A stretch of DNA of 28,059 nucleotides, taken from positions 1 to 28,059 of the IMG/VR virus record IMGVR_UViG_3300027769_000110; one strand, given 5' to 3'. Shown here one piece after another: positions 3,700-26,119 of the stretch. The stretch is from a virus. Lineage: Duplodnaviria; Caudoviricetes. The translations under genes were made by a program, and so were the position numbers. Numbering within the stretch: the stretch's first letter is position 1; each line of letters begins with the position of its first letter. The notes under the pieces were generated by a model. The model did not search any database. It was not told the origin of the DNA and worked only from the letters and a program-made list of their open reading frames with translations.

Positions 3700-3816
3700 T
3701 GTGATCCTCATCACACGGGCCGGCACGTTTTTGTCAAGCCGACACGCTGATAGAAATGGTCATTCTTATTTATGACCATACAAATGTGACCCTTATCACT
3801 TGTGATACACCTCACA
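3700..3816. promoter_or_regulatory. Three CRP/GlxR-type boxes TGTGA-N6-TCAC(A/T) in the divergent control region
   Basis: 3700-3715 perfect, 3785-3800 one mismatch, 3801-3816 perfect. Confidence 0.65.
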
Positions 3817-3850: not shown

Positions 3851-3872
3851 TGTCAGACCCCCATGCTACACT
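3851..3872 (+). promoter_or_regulatory. TGTCAG-N10-TACACT promoter
   Basis: Precedes the GAAAGG RBS and ATG 3928. Confidence 0.65.
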
Positions 3873-4688: not shown

Positions 4689-4765
4689 ATTGTTGGTAAT
4701 TTTAATTGCAATGACTTCATTTGCTTTTGTAATTTGGATGCATAACGGAGCATAAATAAAAAAGG

Positions 4766-4796
4766 ATCGCAGAAATAAAAACTCTGCGATTTTTTT
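4766..4796 (+). terminator. Intrinsic terminator
   Basis: ATCGCAGA/TCTGCGAT stem followed by a T run. Confidence 0.7.
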
Positions 4797-6064: not shown

Positions 6065-6072
6065 TAAAAAAT

Positions 6073-6096
6073 CCTGAGCAAGATCTAAAACTGCTC
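6073..6096 (+). repeat. 24-nt hairpin repeat, copy 1
   Basis: CCTGAGCAAG-ATCTA-AAACTGCTC. Confidence 0.9.
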
Positions 6097-6113
6097 AAAG
6101 ATTTGCCGGCCCG

Positions 6114-6171
6114 TTTTCCACAGGTCAGACCAAGTTATCCACAGGTCATTTAAGATGTGAGTTTTATCACA
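6114..6171. promoter_or_regulatory. Two DnaA boxes plus a perfect CRP-type box
   Basis: TTTTCCACA 6114-6122, TTATCCACA 6135-6143, TGTGA-GTTTTA-TCACA 6156-6171. Confidence 0.6.
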
Positions 6172-6324
6172 CCCACTGAGCGTCTCATTATTTAAGATTA
6201 CTCGCTAGTAGGTTGATAATTTATGACTAATAGGCTAGACTTACATAGTAAGAAAAAATAAACAAAGAAATTTGTCAGACCCTCATGGTAGGATAGATTT
6301 ATCAACAAACGAAAGGCAGACAAA

Positions 6325-6555
6325 ATGTCAGCACTAACTTATACAATAGATAGCCTACTAGTAGGAAAACAGTATCGCTCAAAGTCTCGTGGCATTGAGG
6401 GAGAAATTAAAGAGGCAACGCCTCATGATGCATGGTATGGAAATGAATTCCAAGCCTATCGAATTCTTGTTAGACCAACCTATACAGGAAATTCTATTTC
6501 ACTTAATCGTTGGAAAGATTTTTATGCGGTTGTCGCAGTAAAGGTAAAGGGGTAA
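6325..6555 (+). CDS. Small beta-barrel (SH3-like) hypothetical protein
   Basis: GAAAGG RBS; promoter at 6273-6294; VG..Y.SK..G..GEI pattern. Confidence 0.65.
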   Translation: MSALTYTIDSLLVGKQYRSKSRGIEGEIKEATPHDAWYGNEFQAYRILVRPTYTGNSISLNRWKDFYAVVAVKVKG

Positions 6556-6558
6556 TAA

Positions 6559-6735
6559 ATGAATAATTGGAATTGCCATGAATGCTATGATGAGGGTGTC
6601 CTCTTTTTTGGTAATGGTCACGAAGAATTTGACTCAGAATTTTGTGAGTGCGCTAAGGGCGTGTCGCTTGAAACTGAATACACCGAATGGTATGCTGAAA
6701 GTATCATGAACGAATTTTATAAGGAGAATGCATAA
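6559..6735 (+). CDS. 58-aa zinc-finger-like protein
   Basis: Manual translation MNNWNCHECYDEG...FCEC. Confidence 0.6.
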   Translation: MNNWNCHECYDEGVLFFGNGHEEFDSEFCECAKGVSLETEYTEWYAESIMNEFYKENA

Positions 6736-6953
6736 TGAACGAATACCTATACTCAGTAACAGTTACCTATGACTCAGCCCCTACGCCTAAATGGGTTGGT
6801 CGCTACTCAGATGCTTTATCTGCCGTGGAAGTTTATCAAAAGTTTATTGACCACGGATTTGCTAACGAATACGCAACAGTTAATCTTTCTGAACCTTCAG
6901 GCAAGATGCACACAAAAACTTTTTACAAAACAGGAATGGTGGTAACACGATAA
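6735..6953 (+). CDS. Hypothetical protein
   Basis: AAGGAG RBS; TAATG coupling. Confidence 0.7.
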   Translation: MNEYLYSVTVTYDSAPTPKWVGRYSDALSAVEVYQKFIDHGFANEYATVNLSEPSGKMHTKTFYKTGMVVTR

Positions 6954-7276
6954 TGGGAAGCAATTTTGCACAAGACTTAGCAGAAAACATTGACATAAGC
7001 CTTGAACAGGCTATCGGTTATCACTTACAAGGTAATCACTATCCACCAGTACCACTAAGCATGGTTAAGCCTTGCATTGAAGCGTTAGATGCGGCTCGTG
7101 AATTAGATGCAATGCGCCAGATTGAGATGCCTGAAGGCGTATTCTATAAAGGAAAGACCACTGCACCAGCATGGGCTATCATTGAGCAACACCACTTAGA
7201 TGCATGGTTGCCACAAGATGAAAATGAATACTATGGTGAAGATGCAGGCTACGAACTAGGGTTAGGATTAGAATAA
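6953..7276 (+). CDS. Hypothetical phage protein (HLQGNHYPPVP...IIEQHHL)
   Basis: ORF track; TAATG coupling. Confidence 0.7.
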   Translation: MGSNFAQDLAENIDISLEQAIGYHLQGNHYPPVPLSMVKPCIEALDAARELDAMRQIEMPEGVFYKGKTTAPAWAIIEQHHLDAWLPQDENEYYGEDAGYELGLGLE

Positions 7277-7515
7277 TGTCTGATACAATGGTAAACATGG
7301 AATTGATCCACGCAGATAACTTAACACCAGACCAAGTAATGCTTGGTGATTTAATTAAAATTGACAATGACATTGTTGAAGTAATTTTTATTGAATGTGA
7401 TTCAACAGGAGATAACTATGACATACAAACACAAAACGAATTTGGTGAAAAAGAATTTACTCAGTATGCTTATACTGATTTGATTCCATTGTATGTTTTT
7501 ATTCAAGAAGAATAG
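7276..7515 (+). CDS. Acidic hypothetical protein
   Basis: ORF track; TAATG coupling. Confidence 0.6.
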   Translation: MSDTMVNMELIHADNLTPDQVMLGDLIKIDNDIVEVIFIECDSTGDNYDIQTQNEFGEKEFTQYAYTDLIPLYVFIQEE

Positions 7516-7554
7516 TTAAAAGTATTTTTATGCACTTTCCCGCATAAAAATGCC

Positions 7555-7595
7555 GGCGTGTCGATTTGACATTTTTAACCCATTTATGCTAAGAT
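7555..7595 (+). promoter_or_regulatory. Promoter GGCGTGTCG-AT-TTGACA-18-TAAGAT (leaderless, ATG 7602)
   Basis: Direct reading. Confidence 0.7.
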
Positions 7596-7601
7596 TAGTT
7601 T

Positions 7602-7754
7602 ATGAAGAAAAATGCAGAGGAATTAAGACGCTTAATGGAATTGCGCCGTAGCAATGCAGCCTCTGCCGTACCAAATAAAAAGAAATACGATAGAAAAAAA
7701 TGTCAGTCCCTAATGGTAGAATTAAAGAAAGAAAGAGGGCCCCACTATGACTAA
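7602..7754 (+). CDS. 50-aa basic micro-protein with ELRRSNAA motif
   Basis: Manual translation MKKNAEELRRLMELRRSNAASAVPNKKKYDRKK...; the motif is recalled from small actinophage proteins. Confidence 0.65.
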   Translation: MKKNAEELRRLMELRRSNAASAVPNKKKYDRKKCQSLMVELKKERGPHYD

Positions 7755-8469
7755 ACTCCTACGCTCAAAAGATAGAAAGGTTGCTAACCTTGTCACACCT
7801 AACGGAAAACAAGCAAGTATTGCTAACACATTCGGACTACCCGCAGGAAAGGCTTATTCATGTCCTGGTGCAACGACTGTCTGCGAAAGTGTTTGCTACG
7901 CAGGCAAATTGGAAAAGGTCTTTCCAACAGTAAAGAAAAACCTATTGCACAATTGGTCATTGCTTAAAGACGCAGACGGTGAAACCATGGTGCGCTTACT
8001 TAATGAGATGATCACAGAATTCAAGGCTGATTGTGTAAAGCGTAAGGCACCTATGCTATTCCGTATTCACTGGGACGGCGACTTCTTTAACGATACTTAT
8101 GCATATGCATGGAAAGTAGTTATTGATAAGCACCCTGATATTCAATTCTGGGTATACACTCGTGTTAAATCTGCAGCGCTTATTCTTAAGGATGTATCTA
8201 ATTTATCATTGTATTTTTCTGCTGATAGTGAGAATGTTAAAACTGCCGTTGACCTAAAAATTAACAGTGGTGTACGCATGGCATACCTTGCTAAGAATTT
8301 TGCTATTGGTCAAGCGGATGTAAAAGAAATGATCGGACGACCTGCTGCTAAGTGTCCTGAGAATAATAAACAAATTCCACTAATCTCAACAAATGGAAGC
8401 GCTTGCGTTTCTTGCTCACTTTGTGTATACTCTAAGAGTGACATAATTTTTTCTGCAACTAAGAAATGA
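7747..8469 (+). CDS. GP88-family protein (radical-SAM-like Cys motif)
   Basis: FGLPAG..SCPGAT..C..VCYA, FRIHWDGDF, FWVYTR, C-terminal CP...C..C..C. Confidence 0.8.
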   Translation: MTKLLRSKDRKVANLVTPNGKQASIANTFGLPAGKAYSCPGATTVCESVCYAGKLEKVFPTVKKNLLHNWSLLKDADGETMVRLLNEMITEFKADCVKRKAPMLFRIHWDGDFFNDTYAYAWKVVIDKHPDIQFWVYTRVKSAALILKDVSNLSLYFSADSENVKTAVDLKINSGVRMAYLAKNFAIGQADVKEMIGRPAAKCPENNKQIPLISTNGSACVSCSLCVYSKSDIIFSATKK

Positions 8470-8704
8470 GATGATATGAGTTCAACTCAAATTATATTTT
8501 TGTTTTGGTTTTTGGTTCTTTTGTTTTTCTATCAATAAAAATTGGAAGGGCCGGCACGAAAATTTTATTTTGTCAAGTTGCAACACGCCTTTAAGATGTG
8601 ATTAAGGACACACCACAAAACCTCCCCAAAATTGGTATTTCTGACATTTTTATGCTAAAATTATACTATAAGCAATTAACCCCCACAACGAAAGGCAAGA
8701 CCCA

Positions 8705-8875
8705 ATGACACTACATGGATACACTTACCAAATTGGTGATTTATTCACAACAAGCAAGACAGGCGTTACAGGTCGTATCGCAGGTTTCTCACCAATCAGT
8801 AATAAGGTTACTAGAGTTAGCCTAGTCCTAGCAAACGGCTCTCGTCGCTTGGCTATGGTCAAGACCTCTAAGTAA
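8705..8875 (+). CDS. 56-aa SH3/KOW-like micro-protein A
   Basis: MTLHGYTYQIGDLFTTSKTGVTGRIAGFSPISNKVTRVSLVLANGSRRLAMVKTSK; GAAAGG RBS. Confidence 0.75.
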   Translation: MTLHGYTYQIGDLFTTSKTGVTGRIAGFSPISNKVTRVSLVLANGSRRLAMVKTSK

Positions 8876-8906
8876 TCTCAAAATGTGAGAAATGTCAGGT
8901 TTCGAT

Positions 8907-8936
8907 TTGACATTTTTATCCCCAAAATGTTATACT
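8907..8936 (+). promoter_or_regulatory. Promoter TTGACA-18-TATACT
   Basis: Near-consensus with extended -10 TG. Confidence 0.75.
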
Positions 8937-8981
8937 TAGGTATAACGAAATAACAACCCCTAACAGAAAAGGAAATACAAA

Positions 8982-9146
8982 ATGGCAGTAGCAACAGCAA
9001 CTTACAAGGTAGGCGACACTTTCACAACACAGAAGTCAAAGGTCACAGGAGTAATCACAGAGATTAACCCACAGGCTAACGGAAATGTTCGTGTTAAGTT
9101 AGATGTCAATGGACAGGCTCGCTATACAACTTGGACGGCTAAGTAA
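8982..9146 (+). CDS. 54-aa SH3/KOW-like micro-protein B (paralogue of A)
   Basis: MAVATATYKVGDTFTTQKSKVTGVITEINPQANGNVRVKLDVNGQARYTTWTAK; AAAGGA RBS. Confidence 0.75.
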   Translation: MAVATATYKVGDTFTTQKSKVTGVITEINPQANGNVRVKLDVNGQARYTTWTAK

Positions 9147-9160
9147 TCTAATTACTAATT

Positions 9161-9184
9161 CCTGAGCATGAATACAAACTGCTC
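9161..9184 (+). repeat. 24-nt hairpin repeat, copy 2
   Basis: CCTGAGCATG-AATAC-AAACTGCTC. Confidence 0.9.
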
Positions 9185-9219
9185 AAACCAACCCCCTAAC
9201 AGTAAAGGAACAGACCCAC

Positions 9220-9642
9220 ATGGCACGACAAAAAGCAATCTCAGTAAAGATAGCAACACCAAAAGTAATCAAGGCACTAGAGCAATCACTTGCTAAGTTA
9301 GAACTTGATTGGACATCACAAGAAGCAAACGAGGCTAAGTACGAGAAGGCTCGCAAGGCTTGGCAGAAGGAAGTTATTGACTATGCAGTAGCAAACATCA
9401 AGAAGGCAGAAAACTTCCGTACCAACTATCGTCATTGGTCAAATAACCTTAACATTGACTTTGATTTAACAGTTAGCGAAAAGGAAATGCCAAAAGAGCC
9501 TGAGAAGGACTTTGTTACACTACATCAGCACTCATACAATGAGCAGAAAGAGGAAATCTCTAACGCTATTCGTATTCTAAAGATGACAGATGAGGAAACA
9601 GTTAGCACAAGCACTTACAATGCTATTGCTCGTTATCTCTAA
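9220..9642 (+). CDS. Hypothetical phage protein
   Basis: 140 aa; AAAGGA RBS; strong codon bias. Confidence 0.8.
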   Translation: MARQKAISVKIATPKVIKALEQSLAKLELDWTSQEANEAKYEKARKAWQKEVIDYAVANIKKAENFRTNYRHWSNNLNIDFDLTVSEKEMPKEPEKDFVTLHQHSYNEQKEEISNAIRILKMTDEETVSTSTYNAIARYL

Positions 9643-9697
9643 TTTCTAGTTACCTGTTATTCTGCAACTCGCCTGAGTAACTGAAAATAACTAGACA

Positions 9698-9721
9698 CCT
9701 GAGTAAGTGTATAAACTGCTC
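9698..9721 (+). repeat. 24-nt hairpin repeat, copy 3
   Basis: CCTGAGTAAG-TGTAT-AAACTGCTC. Confidence 0.9.
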
Positions 9722-9745
9722 ACCCCAACTAATTTAAGGAATAAA

Positions 9746-9976
9746 ATGACAACAGAAACAACAGTAGAGTCTTGGAATGGATTTGCTATTACAGGATTTG
9801 TACTTAGCCTTACATTCACACCACTTGCGTTTATCTTTAGCCCGTTGGCACTTAGCCAACTAAAGAAAGACCCAAGCCAACGAGGTAAAGGTCTTGCACA
9901 GGCAGGACTAATTATTGCAACTATTCATGCAGCAATAATCTTTGTTATGCTAATGGCTTTCTCTCTATCAGTATAA
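9746..9976 (+). CDS. DUF4190-like two-TM membrane protein
   Basis: NGFAITGFVLSL...ALSQLKK....RGKGLA.AGLII; start moved to 9746 (AAGGA RBS). Confidence 0.75.
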   Translation: MTTETTVESWNGFAITGFVLSLTFTPLAFIFSPLALSQLKKDPSQRGKGLAQAGLIIATIHAAIIFVMLMAFSLSV

Positions 9977-9983
9977 ATAGTAT

Positions 9984-10089
9984 TCGCCAGGCTGATTAGG
10001 GCGATCATAGAAATACTATAGAGCCAGTTCACACCAACTGCAAGAAGTGTAACTACCTGAGTAAGTATCAAAACTGCTCCCCGCAAGGG
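9984..10089 (+). ncRNA. Candidate structured RNA (pseudoknot plus hairpins, includes repeat copy 4)
   Basis: TCGCC/GGCGA, GGCT/AGCC, ATAG/CTAT, AGTT-ACAC/GTGT-AACT, CCC-GCAA-GGG. Confidence 0.4.
10056..10079 (+). repeat. 24-nt hairpin repeat, copy 4
   Basis: CCTGAGTAAG-TATCA-AAACTGCTC. Confidence 0.9.
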
Positions 10090-10092
10090 CCC

Positions 10093-10122
10093 TTGACAAA
10101 TGTCAGTGGCACCTAGTACAAT
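10093..10122 (+). promoter_or_regulatory. Promoter TTGACA-18-TACAAT with TGTCAG in the spacer
   Basis: Direct reading. Confidence 0.75.
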
Positions 10123-10153
10123 TGGATTAACCAACTAACAGAAAGAGGCCCCC

Positions 10154-10585
10154 ATGGACCAAACAGTCACAGGAATAGAAGAAGCAAAGCACTACATGAC
10201 AAGAGAGTTTTTAGAGACTACTCTTGCACAAAACAAAGCACGTATCGATGAATTAGAAAAGCACATTGCTACAGTTACACAACGTTCATACGGCGAGGCT
10301 GCAGAGCGTAACCGTATGCGTAATGAAATGCAAGAGTGGACCTTGGAAGCGCTAGAGAATGGCACTTTTGATGAAGGCACCGCACAAGAGATTGCAGACA
10401 TTTGCGGTTTTGAATTAACGAAAGAATTCGAATTAGAAGTTACAGTTCTGTATTCGGTTACCGTTAATGCACGTGATGAAGAAAGTGCACAGAATGCAAT
10501 TCACGATATCGATTTCGATACTGTTCAATATGACTCAGATAATATTTCTTGGTTATCATCCAGTGTTGACAGAATAGATATTTAG
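10154..10585 (+). CDS. Acidic hypothetical protein (coiled coil plus V.V.A.DEE.A domain)
   Basis: 143 aa; GAAAGAGG RBS. Confidence 0.8.
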   Translation: MDQTVTGIEEAKHYMTREFLETTLAQNKARIDELEKHIATVTQRSYGEAAERNRMRNEMQEWTLEALENGTFDEGTAQEIADICGFELTKEFELEVTVLYSVTVNARDEESAQNAIHDIDFDTVQYDSDNISWLSSSVDRIDI

Positions 10586-10606
10586 TAGGGGGCTACTAAT
10601 AATAAA

Positions 10607-10630
10607 CCTGAGCATGTTTTAAAACTGCTC
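10607..10630 (+). repeat. 24-nt hairpin repeat, copy 5
   Basis: CCTGAGCATG-TTTTA-AAACTGCTC. Confidence 0.9.
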
Positions 10631-10804
10631 CTCTGTTCCCTCAAAAATTTTCCGGCACGAAAAATCTAAATTGTCAAGTCGACACACCGTGTGATTAAGA
10701 TCACTTTAAGAAATGTCCGATTTGCCCATGTTTAACTATCCCGATTTGCATTTGTCACCCCTTCCGTGTATACTTAGATTAACAACAACAAAAGGAGAAA
10801 ACTC

Positions 10805-11821
10805 ATGGCACATGAACTAGAATCACAAAATGGTAAGGCTTCATTCGCATCATTTCGTGAACCTGCTTGGCATGGATTGGGTACCGTATTTACAGAAGAA
10901 AAAACAACAAGCGAAATGCTTGCTGCTGCCAATCTAAATAATTGGAATGTTCGTCTGGAAGATTTGGAAACCCCTACACATCTCACAAGCGACAAGGCGT
11001 ACCAGTATGTCTTGCGTACTAACCCTACTGATAACACACAGACCGACATTCTTGGTGTCGTTGGTGAGCGTTATCATGTTATGCAGAATGAAGATTTATT
11101 CTCATTCGGTGACAACATTCTTGATGGTGGAGGTCGTTGGGAAACGGCTGGCTCAATCAAGGGTGGTCGTGTCGTATTCGGTGCATTAGCACTAGAGCGT
11201 GAAACTGTCCTAGACCCTAACGGTGTTGCAGATAAGGTAAAGACTTATTTACTTATCAACACATCACATGACGGCTCAATCGCTATTCAAGCAAGCATTA
11301 CACCTGTTCGTGTTGTGTGCGCTAACACTCTTAACCTTGCACTAAACACAACTAAGAAAAAGAATGGTGTCAAGCAATCTTTCAAGATTCGCCACACTCA
11401 GACCGCTTCTGGTAAGGTTGCCGTTGCTCGTGAGACTCTTGGCATGGCTCATAAGTACATGGATTCATTTGACCTCATGGCTAAGGCTATGATTGAAAAA
11501 GAAATCACAGCGCAAGATTTCAATAACATCATTCTTGCTGCATACCCTAAGCCTGAAAAAGATTCTAAGGGTGCTTTCAAGAAATGGGAAAACAAGGTAG
11601 ATGTTATTAACGACATCTATACAGGAGAGTTTAACGGCATGATTGCTGGTAATGCTTGGGGTGCTTTCAATGCACTAACTGAACGCCTTGATTGGTACCG
11701 TTCTGCTCGTGGTGGTTCTAACGAATCTATCCTTGCATCTGCAAGTGGTTTTGACCCTGCTATCAACGCAGAAAAAAATCGTTTGTTAAAGATTGTGCAA
11801 AGCACTTTGCAAATTGCATAA
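10805..11821 (+). CDS. DUF932 / TIGR03299-type phage/plasmid protein
   Basis: MAHELE...REPAWHGLG...Y..MQN...ETAGS..GG...YLL..TSHDGS...TPVRVVCANTL...IRHT...GNAWGAFNA.TE..DW. Confidence 0.9.
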   Translation: MAHELESQNGKASFASFREPAWHGLGTVFTEEKTTSEMLAAANLNNWNVRLEDLETPTHLTSDKAYQYVLRTNPTDNTQTDILGVVGERYHVMQNEDLFSFGDNILDGGGRWETAGSIKGGRVVFGALALERETVLDPNGVADKVKTYLLINTSHDGSIAIQASITPVRVVCANTLNLALNTTKKKNGVKQSFKIRHTQTASGKVAVARETLGMAHKYMDSFDLMAKAMIEKEITAQDFNNIILAAYPKPEKDSKGAFKKWENKVDVINDIYTGEFNGMIAGNAWGAFNALTERLDWYRSARGGSNESILASASGFDPAINAEKNRLLKIVQSTLQIA

Positions 11822-11832
11822 TTAAAAAAATT

Positions 11833-11856
11833 CCTGAGTAAGAATTAAAACTGCTC
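11833..11856 (+). repeat. 24-nt hairpin repeat, copy 6
   Basis: CCTGAGTAAG-AATTA-AAACTGCTC, 7 nt before tRNA-Asp. Confidence 0.9.
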
Positions 11857-11863
11857 ACCATTA

Positions 11864-11937
11864 GGTCCGTTAGAATAGTTGGTTAGTTCGCTACCCTGTC
11901 ACGGTAGAGGTCACGGGTTCAAGTCCCGTACGGATCG
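11864..11937 (+). tRNA. tRNA-Asp(GTC)
   Basis: Acceptor GGTCCGT/ACGGATC; anticodon arm CTACC-CTGTCAC-GGTAG; T arm GGTTCAAGTCC; no encoded CCA. Confidence 0.93.
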
Positions 11938-12103
11938 CAATAAATAAAATAAAAATGCCGGCAGGACAAATAGTACAAATCGGACATACAAAAATGTCAA
12001 TCTTAAATTAAATTACGAAGAACTAAAAAAATCCCCAGAAATATCAAACCTAAAAATCTTTACGATACTTGACATTTATCCCCCAAACCCCTATAATTAG
12101 TAT

Positions 12104-18634: not shown

Positions 18635-18882
18635 TGGATAGTACAAAAAAAAGAAAACTTTTAGATGGGTCTGAGGTAGATGATTACGATTACCCAATTG
18701 ATTTAATTTTGCATACAAAGGCTCCTGCAAAATGGAAACTGATTGATCTTGAAACTGGGCAAGAGTACCTTGGTTCAGAGATATCTCATGAAACATTTGG
18801 AGAACTTCTAAGAAGCAAGGTAGCAAAAGCCAAGATAGGTTCTTGGTTTAAAACAAAGGGAAGAGTAATAAAAAATGGATAA
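18634..18882 (+). CDS. Hypothetical protein
   Basis: TAATG coupling; TKAP.KW.L.D.ETG..Y.G. Confidence 0.65.
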   Translation: MDSTKKRKLLDGSEVDDYDYPIDLILHTKAPAKWKLIDLETGQEYLGSEISHETFGELLRSKVAKAKIGSWFKTKGRVIKNG

Positions 18883-20302
18883 TACTAAAAAGCCTATAAC
18901 CTTTCACTGGATGTGGAGAAGACATTGGCAAATAAATGATAGTATCGAGCACTTAGACCTTAATGGAATTCTCAAGATGGCCCAAGAACTAGATGGTGCT
19001 AACGTAAAATCTGTTTTACTTCCGTATGGTCCAGGAGGTATTGATTTTTCATTAGTAATAAAAGAGGCATTAGAAAAAACCAATCAACTGATAATGACAA
19101 TCGCTTTACCAGCATATGGCGTAAGCCCAGATTATGCTGCGAAGATTCTTGAAACCTTAAATCGCTTTGCTCCTGGAAGAATTGGAGTAAACATGGTTGC
19201 TGGAAGATGGGGCGATGAAGGTAATGGTCATTCTGAAAAGTTAGTAATAGATCACTATATGCATGATCCATCGCTGATTGATACCCTTGAAAAAAGAGTT
19301 GCAATATCTGAAGTGTGGATGGATAAGGTAATGGCTTTAATGGAAAACCATGAGCACAAGACACACATGGCAGTTGTCGGTTCATCAGACACAACAATTG
19401 GAATAGCAAACAAGCATTGCGAATATATATATGTTGATGACAATCTGTTGGTTAGAGATCAGTTTAAAAAGATTGATCTAGATAAGGTGAAGCCAATAGT
19501 GATTATTGATCCACTTATTACCACACATCCAGACGATGAAAAGTATGTCAAGTATGATAAGAATGCTCCAGTTAGACAGCAGCATCATTTAGTAAAAGGA
19601 TCACTGATCGATGTTGTTGCACAAATAAGAAATCTATCTGAAAAATTTGGTATTTATGACTTTATGATTCATACTGATCAGGAAGATATTAGTAAGTTAT
19701 TAGATATGGTAAAAAACTTTAATGACATTGTGGTTCCTGAAGACAATGTCATCGGCTACTCTGACCTAACAGTAAAAACATTTAACAGGATTGGAAGCGA
19801 TCCTAGCAATATTAAAGTATTTAATAACTATCTAAGCAAAGAAGAATGCGAACACATCATAGAACTTATAAAGAGTACAGAGACAAGTAATAACCGTCTT
19901 CTACAGAATGACGATGCTGGTTGGCCTGCCCTATCTTTATTGTATTATGATTCACTTACCTATTCAGAAAAGTATATACCTGGAATTCAGTCTATTTTAG
20001 AAAAAGAGTTTGGTGTAAAACTAAAGCCAAGAAATTCTCGTTTTGCTCAGTGGGTTCATAATAATAGTAAAACTATCCCAATAGATGACATGGGCCACAA
20101 AGACTCAAACCATTTAGCAGGATGGGTTTATCTAAATGATGACTATGATGGTGGAGGTTTATCTTTTATTAATCAGGGCCTATCTCTTAAGCCAAAGGCT
20201 GGCGATCTAATTCTATACCCTGGAAACCCTAACTATTGGTATCATGTTGGGCCAGCCAATGGTTCAAGGTATATCATGCCGATATGGTTTGATCTCGTCT
20301 AG
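18875..20302 (+). CDS. Luciferase-like (LLM/SsuD-type) flavin monooxygenase domain fused to a 2OG-Fe(II) oxygenase-like domain
   Basis: N-term: AQEL..A...SVLLP...IAL....SP.YAAK...TL...APGR..VN.VAG; C-term: YLNDDYDGG...KPKAG..ILYP...HV....G.RY. Confidence 0.75.
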   Translation: MDNTKKPITFHWMWRRHWQINDSIEHLDLNGILKMAQELDGANVKSVLLPYGPGGIDFSLVIKEALEKTNQLIMTIALPAYGVSPDYAAKILETLNRFAPGRIGVNMVAGRWGDEGNGHSEKLVIDHYMHDPSLIDTLEKRVAISEVWMDKVMALMENHEHKTHMAVVGSSDTTIGIANKHCEYIYVDDNLLVRDQFKKIDLDKVKPIVIIDPLITTHPDDEKYVKYDKNAPVRQQHHLVKGSLIDVVAQIRNLSEKFGIYDFMIHTDQEDISKLLDMVKNFNDIVVPEDNVIGYSDLTVKTFNRIGSDPSNIKVFNNYLSKEECEHIIELIKSTETSNNRLLQNDDAGWPALSLLYYDSLTYSEKYIPGIQSILEKEFGVKLKPRNSRFAQWVHNNSKTIPIDDMGHKDSNHLAGWVYLNDDYDGGGLSFINQGLSLKPKAGDLILYPGNPNYWYHVGPANGSRYIMPIWFDLV

Positions 20303-20964: not shown

Positions 20965-21972
20965 ATGACAAAAATTACAAAAAATATTTTAAACTATTAT
21001 AAAAATAATGAAAATAATTCCTTTTATTTAAACAAATATTTTACAAATACTCTTGAAATTGGTTACTACGCTCCACATGCAACAAATGTTATTCTAAATA
21101 AATCAAATGGTGATCCTTTTTTACCAACGGTGGATGAGCATAACACATACAAGATTAATAGCCTTGGTTTGCGTGGAGAAGTGGATCTTGATGCTGATGT
21201 TCTTGCCTCTGGTTGTTCTATTACTTTTGGTATTGGGATCCCAGAAGATGGAAGATGGACAAACCTTCTAAGCAATAAGATGAATAAGAGTATAATGAAC
21301 TTAGGAAATCCTGGAGGATCTGTAGCAACTATCTGTAACCATATCATTCATTATTGCATGAACAACAAAATGCCTAAAGAAATTTTTTGTTTGATGCCAG
21401 ATTTTTGGAGAAATATGGTTGTTGTAGACAAAGAATTTTATAAGTCAGGCGTAAAGAGAGAAAATGTTGGAACAAAAGATTTTTTAGAGTTAATGTTTTG
21501 TAATCCCAATATTAAAACAGATGAAGATATTGTTGTCATGGAGACAAAAGATAAACAAAATATAGAAGACTCACTTTCGCCACATCAACTAATTTTAAAT
21601 GCTGTAAACTATATTTATATTTTAGAATCATTTTGTTTATCAAATAACATAAAACTACATTGGACAACATGGGACAGATCAAGTTCTATGGTCATGGAAC
21701 AACTTGAAAAACTTGAAAATTTTAAATTAAAAAACTTTGTTCCTTTTTACCCAAAAGGTTCAGGAAATCAACTTAATTTTTTTATAAAAGAGACTTGCAC
21801 TTCAAGCCACGATAACGAATTTAAAGACCATATATGTTGGCCTTCTGGATCTGATTATTCTGTTATAGACCATAAGAAACACCCAGAAATGTCTCATCCA
21901 GGAATTCATTTTCAAGAGCATGTAGCAGAGTTTTTTTATAACTTACAGAATCAAGTAGATTCCAGAAAATGA
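20965..21972 (+). CDS. SGNH/GDSL hydrolase-like protein
   Basis: INSLGLRG...GCSITFG.G...W...NLG.PG.S...HPG..H. Confidence 0.65.
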   Translation: MTKITKNILNYYKNNENNSFYLNKYFTNTLEIGYYAPHATNVILNKSNGDPFLPTVDEHNTYKINSLGLRGEVDLDADVLASGCSITFGIGIPEDGRWTNLLSNKMNKSIMNLGNPGGSVATICNHIIHYCMNNKMPKEIFCLMPDFWRNMVVVDKEFYKSGVKRENVGTKDFLELMFCNPNIKTDEDIVVMETKDKQNIEDSLSPHQLILNAVNYIYILESFCLSNNIKLHWTTWDRSSSMVMEQLEKLENFKLKNFVPFYPKGSGNQLNFFIKETCTSSHDNEFKDHICWPSGSDYSVIDHKKHPEMSHPGIHFQEHVAEFFYNLQNQVDSRK

Positions 21973-22797: not shown

Positions 22798-23038
22798 TTA
22801 AAAATGTTTGTTCTCTATGTAATCTAGACAAGGCATCTGAATGGTTTTGGGACGCTCATCAAACAATGAGTGATGGAAAAGTTTGGTGTGTTAATGCCAA
22901 AAGAGCCTAAGATAACTCAGATGGACTGGCGTAGCCTTGGCTACTGGCCTGTATGGAAAAATGGAAAAAAAGTTTGGGTAAAAGACGACAATAGAAATAG
23001 GCAATAACACTTATTTCAACCCTGTGATACAATTAATT

Positions 23039-24055
23039 ATGAAGTTTTTAACAAGAGATATTTTGCCTTTTTATAAAGAGAATGAAGAAAATGATTGGTA
23101 TTTAAAAAGGTTTTTTTCAAATACAAAGCAAATTGGACTTTATAAGCCAGGAAGTAATGATGTTGTTAGTTCAAAACGTATTAGTAAAGATAACTCTGTA
23201 GAAACAGTTGATGAGGTAAATACCTACGAAATAAATTCTATTGGTTTAAGAGGAGAAATTGATGAAAATTCAGAGATACTTGCATCTGGTTGCTCTATAA
23301 CCTTTGGTCTTGGTGTTCCAGAATCTGGTAGGTGGACAAACCTTTTAAGCAAAAAGATTAACAAAAGTGTTACGAACTTGGGCAATCCTGGAGACTCAGT
23401 AGAAAATATTTGCATGAACATAATCCAGTACTGCTTAAACACTAAAATGCCAAAAGAAATTTTTTGCTTTTTCCCAGATTTTTTTAGAAGCGTGGTCATA
23501 GTAGACAAAGAATTTTATAAGTCAAGAGTCAACAGAGGCAGTATGGGAACAAAAGATAACTTAGAACAAGTTTTTTGCAACCCAAAAATAATTCAAGACA
23601 AGAGATCATTTTTTATGGAAATACAAGATCAAAAATATATAGAGGACTCAACTTCCCCACATCAACTCGTTGTGGACTCTATTAGGTTTATTTATGTTTT
23701 AGAATCATTTTGTTTGTCAAATAATATAAAACTACACTGGACAACTTGGAACATACCATCTAGTTATATTTTAGAAGAATTAAGTAAAATAAAAGATTTT
23801 AAATTAAAAAATTTTACATCTTTTTATCCTCCTGATTCAGAATATGAGGGCTTGGGCGCACTTATACTAGAGAATTGTAATCCAGATACTCACGAACACG
23901 AGTTTAAAGATCACCCATCTTGGAATGTGGGATCTGACTATGCTTTTATAGATGGTAAAAAAACATTTAAAAATTCTCATCCAGGAATACATGTTCAAGA
24001 ACATGTTTCAGATTTTTTTTACAATTTATATAAGGGACACAATGAAAACAATTAA
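23039..24055 (+). CDS. SGNH/GDSL hydrolase-like protein (paralogue of 20965..21972)
   Basis: Shares GCSITFG, MPKEIFC, VDKEFYKS, SPHQL, LESFCLSNNIKLHWTTW and HPGIH. Confidence 0.7.
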   Translation: MKFLTRDILPFYKENEENDWYLKRFFSNTKQIGLYKPGSNDVVSSKRISKDNSVETVDEVNTYEINSIGLRGEIDENSEILASGCSITFGLGVPESGRWTNLLSKKINKSVTNLGNPGDSVENICMNIIQYCLNTKMPKEIFCFFPDFFRSVVIVDKEFYKSRVNRGSMGTKDNLEQVFCNPKIIQDKRSFFMEIQDQKYIEDSTSPHQLVVDSIRFIYVLESFCLSNNIKLHWTTWNIPSSYILEELSKIKDFKLKNFTSFYPPDSEYEGLGALILENCNPDTHEHEFKDHPSWNVGSDYAFIDGKKTFKNSHPGIHVQEHVSDFFYNLYKGHNENN

Positions 24056-26041: not shown

Positions 26042-26115
26042 ACATCTGTAACTCAGTTGGTTAGAGTACCTGCCTTATATGCAGAGAGCCGAAGGTTCAA
26101 GTCCTTCCAGATGTA
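26042..26115 (+). tRNA. tRNA-Ile(TAT)
   Basis: ACATCTG/CAGATGT acceptor; CTGC-CTTATAT-GCAG; GGTTCAAGTCC. Confidence 0.85.
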
Positions 26116-26119
26116 CAAG

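Follow-up and report, generated by a model that had tools for sequence, protein, structure and literature searches.

A compact RNA pseudoknot predicted behind phage stop codons and its possible role at messenger RNA 3′ ends

Introduction

What is the role of a 24-nt sequence that one phage genome carries six times, always between genes and always on the same strand? We addressed this question for IMGVR_UViG_3300027769_000110 (Duplodnaviria; Caudoviricetes), a 28-kb phage record to which no further contigs belong and whose 28,059 nt, taken as a whole, are called the window here. A preliminary description of this DNA, made from the letters alone, had taken the repeat for an RNA hairpin behind early genes that a protein recognizes. 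We find that the repeat is a predicted H-type RNA pseudoknot of 26 to 29 nt (hereafter, the knot) and not a simple hairpin. It is a real, uncatalogued, and very widespread RNA pseudoknot of the 3′-end structure kind, and, judging from sequence comparison, we consider it likely, with a probability of roughly 0.55, that the knot would act as a barrier to 3′-to-5′ exonucleases that gives the upstream phage message a stable 3′ end. The host is likely a freshwater actinobacterium, because the DUF932 protein of the phage has its closest isolate homologues in Streptomyces phages (53% identity) and because freshwater RNA runs contain pieces of more than 200 nt identical to the window. The label “early genes” is a tentative one, drawn from the small genes and the repeated promoter-like motifs.

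Results

Six copies of one element in the window

A pattern search returned six exact copies of the repeat, starting at positions 6073, 9161, 9698, 10056, 10607, and 11833, all on the + strand, compared with 0.02 copies expected from 100 shuffles. No further copy appeared in the window at up to three mismatches, nor in two generic pseudoknot scans, one of which recovered four of the six known copies together with three unrelated candidates. The copies agree at 17 of 24 columns, and the C and T that stand opposite a G in the stem are split 3:3. Each copy is intergenic and lies 3′ of a + strand stop codon, and the copies are dispersed, with 358 to 3,088 nt between neighbors; none of the six is followed by a U-tract or was called as a terminator. 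The preliminary description had given the same starts, strand, placement, and column counts, had denied that these are canonical terminators, and had placed the last copy 7 nt before a tRNA-Asp; our searches agree with it in all of these points.

On their own, the 24-mers are predicted to fold weakly (−1.9 to −6.0 kcal/mol). In all six copies, C1 and the two to four bases that precede it pair with G10 and the bases previously written as an N5 spacer, yielding a stem 1 of 3 to 5 bp that crosses the stem already described. The architecture consists of stem 1 (NNNC/GNNN, 3 to 5 bp) and stem 2 (GAGYA/UGCUC, 5 to 6 bp), connected by the loops CU, a single base, and NN-AAAC. Stem 2 of the earlier hairpin is thus retained, while its hairpin fold gives way to a pseudoknot: the 5′ CCT that had been regarded as unpaired contributes C1 to stem 1, G10 needs no C19 partner in a closing G-C pair, and the element starts 2 to 4 nt earlier than had been proposed.

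Covariation of two crossing stems

A scan of viral contigs (2 of 64 parts) yielded 135 loci; 106 distinct 24-nt matches were used for stem 1, whose positions −3/13, −2/12, and −1/11 had been left free in the search pattern. Pair −2/12 was Watson-Crick in all 106 matches (43 G-C, 24 A-U, 22 C-G, and 17 U-A; mean of 30 and maximum of 47 upon shuffling), pair −1/11 in 105 of 106 (shuffled mean, 44), and pair −3/13 in 77 of 106 (shuffled mean, 33). For stem 2, we used scans that required one of its positions to depart from the consensus. Among 107 distinct matches in which position 5 was not A, we counted 97 G-C, 6 G·U, and 2 C-G pairs; where position 6 was not G, it formed a Watson-Crick pair with position 22 in 93 of 95 stem-1-positive variants; and where position 4 was not G, it did so with position 24 in 77 of 101, with A·A in 11. 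Position 7 seldom holds a purine (48 stretches, 18 of them distinct and 9 with stem 1, of which 6 were paired), and U7-A21 occurs in two copies of cyanophage S-CRM01. In a hand-picked, variant-enriched alignment of 80 rows, 96.3% of the cells were paired, a value that none of 500 shuffles reached, and slid controls gave 28 to 42%.

The span is likewise fixed, at 24 nt in 317 of 350 matches, and loop base C2 and the AAA of the third loop are near-invariant. When C2 was altered, stem 1 was kept in only 10 of 84 distinct matches (~5 expected by chance); when C19 was altered, it was kept in 15 of 100, 11 of which retained the AAA. Because U3, A8-U20, and C1-G10 were fixed in every collection scan, invariance at these positions may be a property of the search. 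By analogy with luteovirus-type knots, for whose beet western yellows virus (BWYV) type base-triple details are known, the near-invariant loop C and the AAAC may form base triples.

The preliminary description had named a DNA site as the alternative to be checked, and GAGCA/TGCTC is indeed an inverted repeat. The fold is nevertheless one of RNA and not a DNA site, because the two crossing stems covary, the wobble is one-sided (C or U opposite G), and the matches are strand-biased, with stem variants compensated. These observations exclude a double-stranded DNA site and bear out the earlier proposal of a sense-strand RNA element under selection for pairing.

Fixed length and near-invariant loop bases would also be expected of an RNA that a host or phage protein binds, be it for antitermination, for processing, or as a decoy for a type III toxin. 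Type III antitoxins (toxI, cptI, and tenpI) are H-type knots with an A-rich loop that form tandem repeats between promoter and terminator, upstream of the toxin gene (PMC12283969, in part). Here, the copies are dispersed and not tandem, and no type III toxin family appeared among 38 window proteins scanned, a set that does not comprise all open reading frames (ORFs); a type III antitoxin was accordingly rejected. Most stem pairs moreover swap freely, and the same sequence stands on contigs of many phyla, which would be hard for one protein to recognize. We therefore rate a protein site as very unlikely. Protein recognition is not needed to account for the invariant bases; 3′ stabilization, which had also been proposed, remains a candidate.

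The knot is anchored to the upstream stop codon

For 243 matches whose flanks were long, we looked for the end of a sense ORF of 60 codons or more; it fell within 60 nt of the knot in 160, compared with 34 when the anchor was moved and 67 on the reverse strand; the ORF end lay at 5 to 9 nt in 96 of the 243 and at 0 to 4 nt in 1. A metagenome set, fetched separately, had an ORF end within 60 nt in 72 of 94 cases (controls, 10 and 15), at 5 to 9 nt in 32 and at 0 to 4 nt in 2. When pooling the viral and metagenome sets, which overlap, the distance from the stop to the first paired base was 5 to 9 nt in 137 of 245 cases and 3 nt or less in 3. The lower bound of this gap matches the stretch that a terminating ribosome covers. 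A ribosome-binding site (RBS) with a start codon follows 9 to 57 nt behind in 123 of 350 matches. The position of the knot is tied to the upstream gene, since the spacing to the stop is sharp and that to the next start is loose. No common neighbor gene was evident, in a comparison without a systematic test, and relatives among the RNA-run contigs that lack the Ltp or DUF4190 gene still keep the knot.

A spacer of 5 to 9 nt is typical of recoding pseudoknots, and the knot might be read as a readthrough or frameshift signal on the ribosome. The frame past the stop, however, stays open for at least 40 codons in only 9 of 96 cases, and for 0 to 14 codons in the window. UAA predominates among the upstream stops (123 of 198), and slippery heptamers occurred in 0 of 168 cases. 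Together with the DNA site, we regard this recoding reading as largely refuted.

Within the window, knot 1 (6071..6097, + strand; stem 1 ATC/GAT, stem 2 (U)GAGCA/UGCUC(A)) lies 6 nt past the stop of the Ltp lipoprotein gene and is followed by a CCGGC box and promoter-like motifs. Knot 2 (9158..9185, +; stem 1 ATTC/GAAT) lies 11 nt past the stop at 9146, and the next start codon (9220) follows 35 nt past base 9184, with no promoter match in between. Knot 3 (9695..9722, +; stem 1 ACAC/GTGT, U·G at position 7) is found 52 nt past the stop at 9642, behind a long hairpin, and the DUF4190 gene starts at 9746, 24 nt past base 9721. Knot 4 (10054..10079, +; stem 1 TAC/GTA, U·G at position 7) lies 77 nt past the stop at 9976, with a second folded element in front and a small GCAA hairpin and a −35/−10 match at 10093-10122 behind. 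Knot 5 (10604..10630, +; stem 1 AAAC/GTTT), 18 nt past the stop at 10585, has a short hairpin overlapping that stop in front and a CCGGC box and promoter-like motifs behind. Knot 6 (11829..11857, +; stem 1 AATTC/GAATT, U·G at position 7) lies 7 nt past the stop of the DUF932 gene (PF06067; 10805..11821, +), and tRNA-Asp(GTC) (11864..11938, +) starts 7 nt after base 11856; upon 5′ maturation of this tRNA, the upstream message would end close behind knot 6.

Antitermination of the boxB/nut type had also been suggested for the repeat. Such a site lies between the promoter and the first gene, ahead of terminators; the copies sit past stops, three of them in front of promoter-like motifs, which makes this a poor fit, and we rejected it.

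Plain hairpins in the same slot

The slot between stop and CCGGC box in which knots 1 and 5 reside is elsewhere occupied by plain hairpins. One of these, of 14 bp and with a U-tract (4760..4796, +), lies 4 nt past the stop of a 21-codon ORF; the other, of 12 bp and A/U-rich (7522..7553, +), lies 6 nt past the stop at 7515; both stand before a CCGGC box. Between positions 2500 and 16200, we found seven such boxes (3720, 4798, 6106, 7553, 8551, 10652, and 11958), preceded by knots 1 and 5, the two plain hairpins, in one case a tRNA, and in two cases no clear structure. In Streptomyces phage Samisti12, a close cultured relative by DUF932, no knot was found. A hairpin of −18 kcal/mol or stronger, a value inflated by the higher G+C of this phage, lies just past the stop in 10 of the 16 Samisti12 gaps folded, including that of the DUF932 homologue; these hairpins mostly have UUCG, UCCG, or GAAA loops and no U-tract. 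Among the loci selected for the knot, one homologue (L089) has a clean hairpin in its place. As a separate observation, the CCGGC box stands behind the 3′ structure of most gene blocks, and a similar box with CCGG stands at the corresponding place in Samisti12.

That a canonical terminator hairpin (4760) shares the slot could also mean that the knot serves as a terminator or pause signal of the pseudoknot type, at which transcription stops or is attenuated whether or not a U-tract follows. Knots 1, 4, and 5 precede promoter-like motifs, with no other terminator-like site called there, and a U-tract follows 85 of 350 matches vs 16 at +30 nt. The antisense A-run control, however, already gives 65 of 350, an RBS and start follow in 123 of 350, and none of the window copies has a U-tract; a gene or tRNA begins 7 to 35 nt behind knots 2, 3, and 6 without a promoter match, and RNA-run contigs, in which DNA carry-over is possible, span the knot positions. 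We consider termination unlikely as the function of the knot. An intrinsic terminator proper, i.e., a G+C-rich hairpin with a U-tract, was called at none of the six copies and was discarded.

Cut sites downstream of the knot

Around 597 distinct matches, we found 35 tRNAs downstream (34 of them at 2 to 13 nt), 5 upstream, and 0 antisense. Six matches have a type III hammerhead pattern directly downstream, which by eye would be cut 6 to 13 nt past the knot; one of these six patterns scored 33.3 bits with Rfam, below the cut-off, and the sole hammerhead above the cut-off (locus L339) lies about 190 nt upstream of its knot. After a cut at such a tRNA or hammerhead, the upstream piece would carry the knot at its 3′ end. 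The DUF2800 RNA (RF02960) starts one base behind the knot in loci L039, L270, L371, and L408. For 32 DUF932 homologues that keep the knot, the next element is a called tRNA in 20, a truncated or degenerate tRNA-like stretch (by eye) in 2, and neither in 10. The proximity of the last window copy to tRNA-Asp had suggested a role in tRNA processing, which these 10 of 32 homologues without a following tRNA do not support.

Might the knot itself be the cutter, a very small self-cleaving ribozyme that divides long phage messages into pieces the size of a gene? In prophages, hammerheads are found at the flanks of genes (PMC3088659, in part), and a knot with near-invariant bases across phyla agrees with the criteria for “sophisticated RNA” in the portion of PMC5737381 that we consulted. 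Yet the knot adjoins hammerhead patterns and tRNAs, where a second cut 2 to 13 nt away would be redundant, and plain hairpins occupy its slot. It contains no hammerhead catalytic core and matches no Rfam ribozyme model, so that a known ribozyme was rejected, and a self-cleaving knot appears highly improbable.

A downstream role would make the knot a shield or regulator of the following gene, either as a block to RNase J akin to exoribonuclease-resistant RNAs (xrRNAs), as an obstacle to RNase E scanning, or as a segment of a leader of the GP20-b kind. In Escherichia coli, RNase E scanning is impeded by H-type pseudoknots, as described in part of PMC9943677, where protection rises with stem length and 11 bp is modest; the present knot has 8 to 11 bp. 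A start codon lies within 9 to 57 nt in 123 of 350 matches, four loci have the DUF2800 RNA right behind the knot, GP20-b aligns on the knot by its first hairpin in L367 (24.0 bits) and L372 (25.4 bits), and knots in front of scaffold leaders are compatible as well. By contrast, the knot keeps a narrowly set distance from the stop before it and a variable one from the start behind it; its placement speaks for the 3′ side of a message, and cuts at tRNAs or hammerheads would sever the knot from the downstream RNA. The knot also occurs on contigs labeled Bacteroidota and beta- or gamma-proteobacteria, which to our knowledge lack RNase J, and stem 1 is imperfect in the single copy read from an E. 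coli phage. Overall, a function for the downstream gene seems quite unlikely.

Spread across viruses and bacteria

Estimates for the core pattern amount to about 6,800 stretches in viral contigs, 590 in genome contigs, and 12,000 in metagenome contigs, and three variant classes add about 920, 2,000, and 480 further viral stretches. The 590 genome-contig stretches carry labels of many phyla, including Bacteroidota and beta- and gamma-proteobacteria, as far as such bins hold no stray phage contigs. The motif is present in cultured phages, among them Lentibacter phage ICBM2, Roseobacter phage SIO1, the cyanophages S-RIM4 and S-CRM01, and the thermophilic phage D6E; in Escherichia phage PO103-1, the only E. 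coli phage copy read, stem 1 is imperfect. At up to two mismatches, the motif was found in 0 of 10 well-studied phages (PAK_P3, 14-1, YuA, LUZ7, phiKZ, Syn9, crAss001, K, SPO1, and T5). In ICBM2 (L136:5983-6300), the annotated glutaredoxin start overlaps the knot, and the true start is probably an ATG 37 nt behind it. In bacterial contigs (L348, L354, L377, L379, L391, L419, and others), a conserved stretch with CAYTG lies just 5′ of the knot; this stretch gave no Rfam match at gathering thresholds.

Discussion

A probable barrier at the 3′ end

Taken as a barrier to 3′-to-5′ exonucleases, the knot would operate as follows. Triples of the loop C and the AAAC would stabilize the 9- to 10-bp fold, and the minimum gap of 5 nt would keep it clear of the terminating ribosome. 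A free 3′ end would be formed a few bases downstream by termination, by RNase P at a tRNA, by a hammerhead, or by an endonuclease in the G-poor spacer, whereupon PNPase, RNase II, or RNase R would trim back to stem 2 and halt. In this A+T-rich genome, the knot would do the job of an intercistronic or terminator stem-loop; structured 3′ ends protect bacterial mRNA from exonucleases (PMC3997798, in part).

Several points weigh against this barrier. A plain hairpin would suffice for protection, and the strict conservation of the loops across phyla is explained only by the putative triples. The loci were chosen for the knot, which biases the slot counts, most hairpins at these loci have a knot further on, and sharing a slot with terminator hairpins is equally compatible with termination. 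tRNA or hammerhead neighbors occur at only about 7% of matches, and among the 35 downstream tRNAs, tRNA-Asp accounts for 21, most of them from one lineage, and other types for 14. Phage D6E and Lactobacillus prophages have the knot in front of a scaffold or GP20-type leader. The RNA-run evidence (24 runs with small shares) consists of assembled contigs, the four examined giving pieces and joints and not ends or strand, and the 10 phages screened that have published transcript maps lack the motif and hence offer no published ends for comparison. A literature search found no paper on such a knot stopping PNPase or RNase R.

A bolder extension, which we put forward as doubtful, is that the knot mirrors the viral xrRNAs: a 27-nt triple-locked knot, in phages of many phyla, that may halt structure-melting 3′-to-5′ decay by RNase R or by helicase- or tailing-assisted PNPase, and that may also end transcription without a U-tract. 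If this is true, the knot would represent a new class of natural RNAs that form ends in bacteria without protein. A knot that caps messages would explain how gene-sized transcript pieces survive tRNA or ribozyme cuts and would offer a portable stabilizer of 27 nt; one that merely equals a hairpin would be a useful annotation with modest biology.

Relation to known elements

Like the intercistronic and terminator stem-loops that protect mRNA 3′ ends (PMC3997798, in part), the knot lies just past the stop on the same strand, and it shares a slot with such hairpins in the window and in Samisti12. It differs from protective stem-loops in being a pseudoknot of fixed size whose loop bases are conserved, which is weak as a mere hairpin and usually has no U-tract, and its protection is predicted. 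The repetitive extragenic palindromic (REP) elements belong to this class of protective stem-loops.

In agreement with the preliminary description, which could name no RNA family, a Rfam search at E up to 10 over the whole window and over 9640-10130 separately placed no family on any copy, and on 40 relative loci, it returned only neighbors or sub-threshold overlaps with GP20-b. We found no description of the knot in the literature, in a search that covered the alignment supplements of PMC5737381 and PMC10690425 only partly, where an entry is possible. Probably on account of its shortness and knotting, Rfam lacks this RNA family, for which we estimate ten thousand or more occurrences in viral contigs and whose two stems clearly covary.

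The nearest catalogued relative is GP20-b (RF03003; PMC10690425, in part), of which model positions 1-27 can be aligned to the knot at two loci of Lactobacillus prophages, with 24.0 bits in L367 and 25.4 bits in L372 against a cut-off of 36.2; the window gave no match. Unlike the knot, GP20-b as described in the consulted part of PMC10690425 comprises a second hairpin plus a 3′ tail and sits before GP20 genes. Behind the window copies stand other genes, promoter-like motifs, or a tRNA, and not the second hairpin, the tail, and a GP20 gene. Sampling for GP20-b gave 1 of 5 and 1 of 47 genomes, at the same locus, and a search with the pattern of its 3′ tail gave 0 matches. In the GP20-b matches L423:223-283 and L098:236-297 (minus strand), which lie directly behind a canonical knot, the first hairpin has by eye the same knot topology with different letters; the first hairpin of GP20-b may itself be a knot.

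With luteovirus-type knots such as that of BWYV, the knot shares its size, the H-type topology, a first loop of 1 to 2 nt starting with C, a one-base second loop, and an A-rich third; the compact BWYV-type pseudoknot has 8 coaxial bp (PMC9943677, in part). Unlike these, the window knot lies past stops in noncoding DNA, without a slippery site or an open frame behind. STAXI (RF01728) is likewise a small repeated pseudoknot in mobile DNA, yet, in the part of PMC2864571 consulted, it comes as two or three tandem pseudoknots, with UUCG loops, and from Enterobacteriales, whereas the knots are 358 to 3,088 nt apart and have no Rfam match. The hammerheads that punctuate prophage operons (PMC3088659, in part) are, like the knot, repeated RNA elements between small phage genes, and the two co-occur, the knot being without a hammerhead core. 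A small 3′-terminal pseudoknot that stabilizes RNA is also found in the evopreQ1 and mpknot motifs on prime-editing guides; these are synthetic and used in eukaryotic cells, and the portion of PMC10575697 consulted calls their mechanism undetermined.

Other features of the window

Between the stop at 9976 and knot 4 lies a second pseudoknot-like element (9984-10024), with UCGCC/GGCGA crossing GGCU/AGCC and an inserted hairpin; it is near-identical in L050, and a similar stretch stands behind a different gene in L120. The long hairpin before knot 3 (9646-9694), which includes a partial copy of the 5′ half of the knot, and a smaller one before knot 4 (10025-10053) both contain CTGCAA. A promoter-like motif TGTCA-N10/11-TA..T is repeated at 3851, 5015, 7701, 10101, 10753, and 12905. 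Seven TGTG-N8-CACA palindromes, which we take to be CRP/GlxR-like, occur at 3700, 3801, 4841, 4971, 6156, 8597, and 12666, mostly in intergenic control regions.

Further downstream, an ORF of 475 aa (18875-20302) carries a 2OG-Fe(II) oxygenase-like domain at its C terminus and has no Pfam or PHROG hit for its N-terminal part. A tRNA at 26042-26116, called Ile, has the anticodon TAT, which is unusual in bacteria, and is clustered with tRNA-Met, -Gly, and -Arg. Two paralogous ORFs (20965-21972 and 23024-24055; 335 and 343 aa) share 73 to 79% DNA identity in parts, and each adjoins a shorter ORF that is likewise paralogous.

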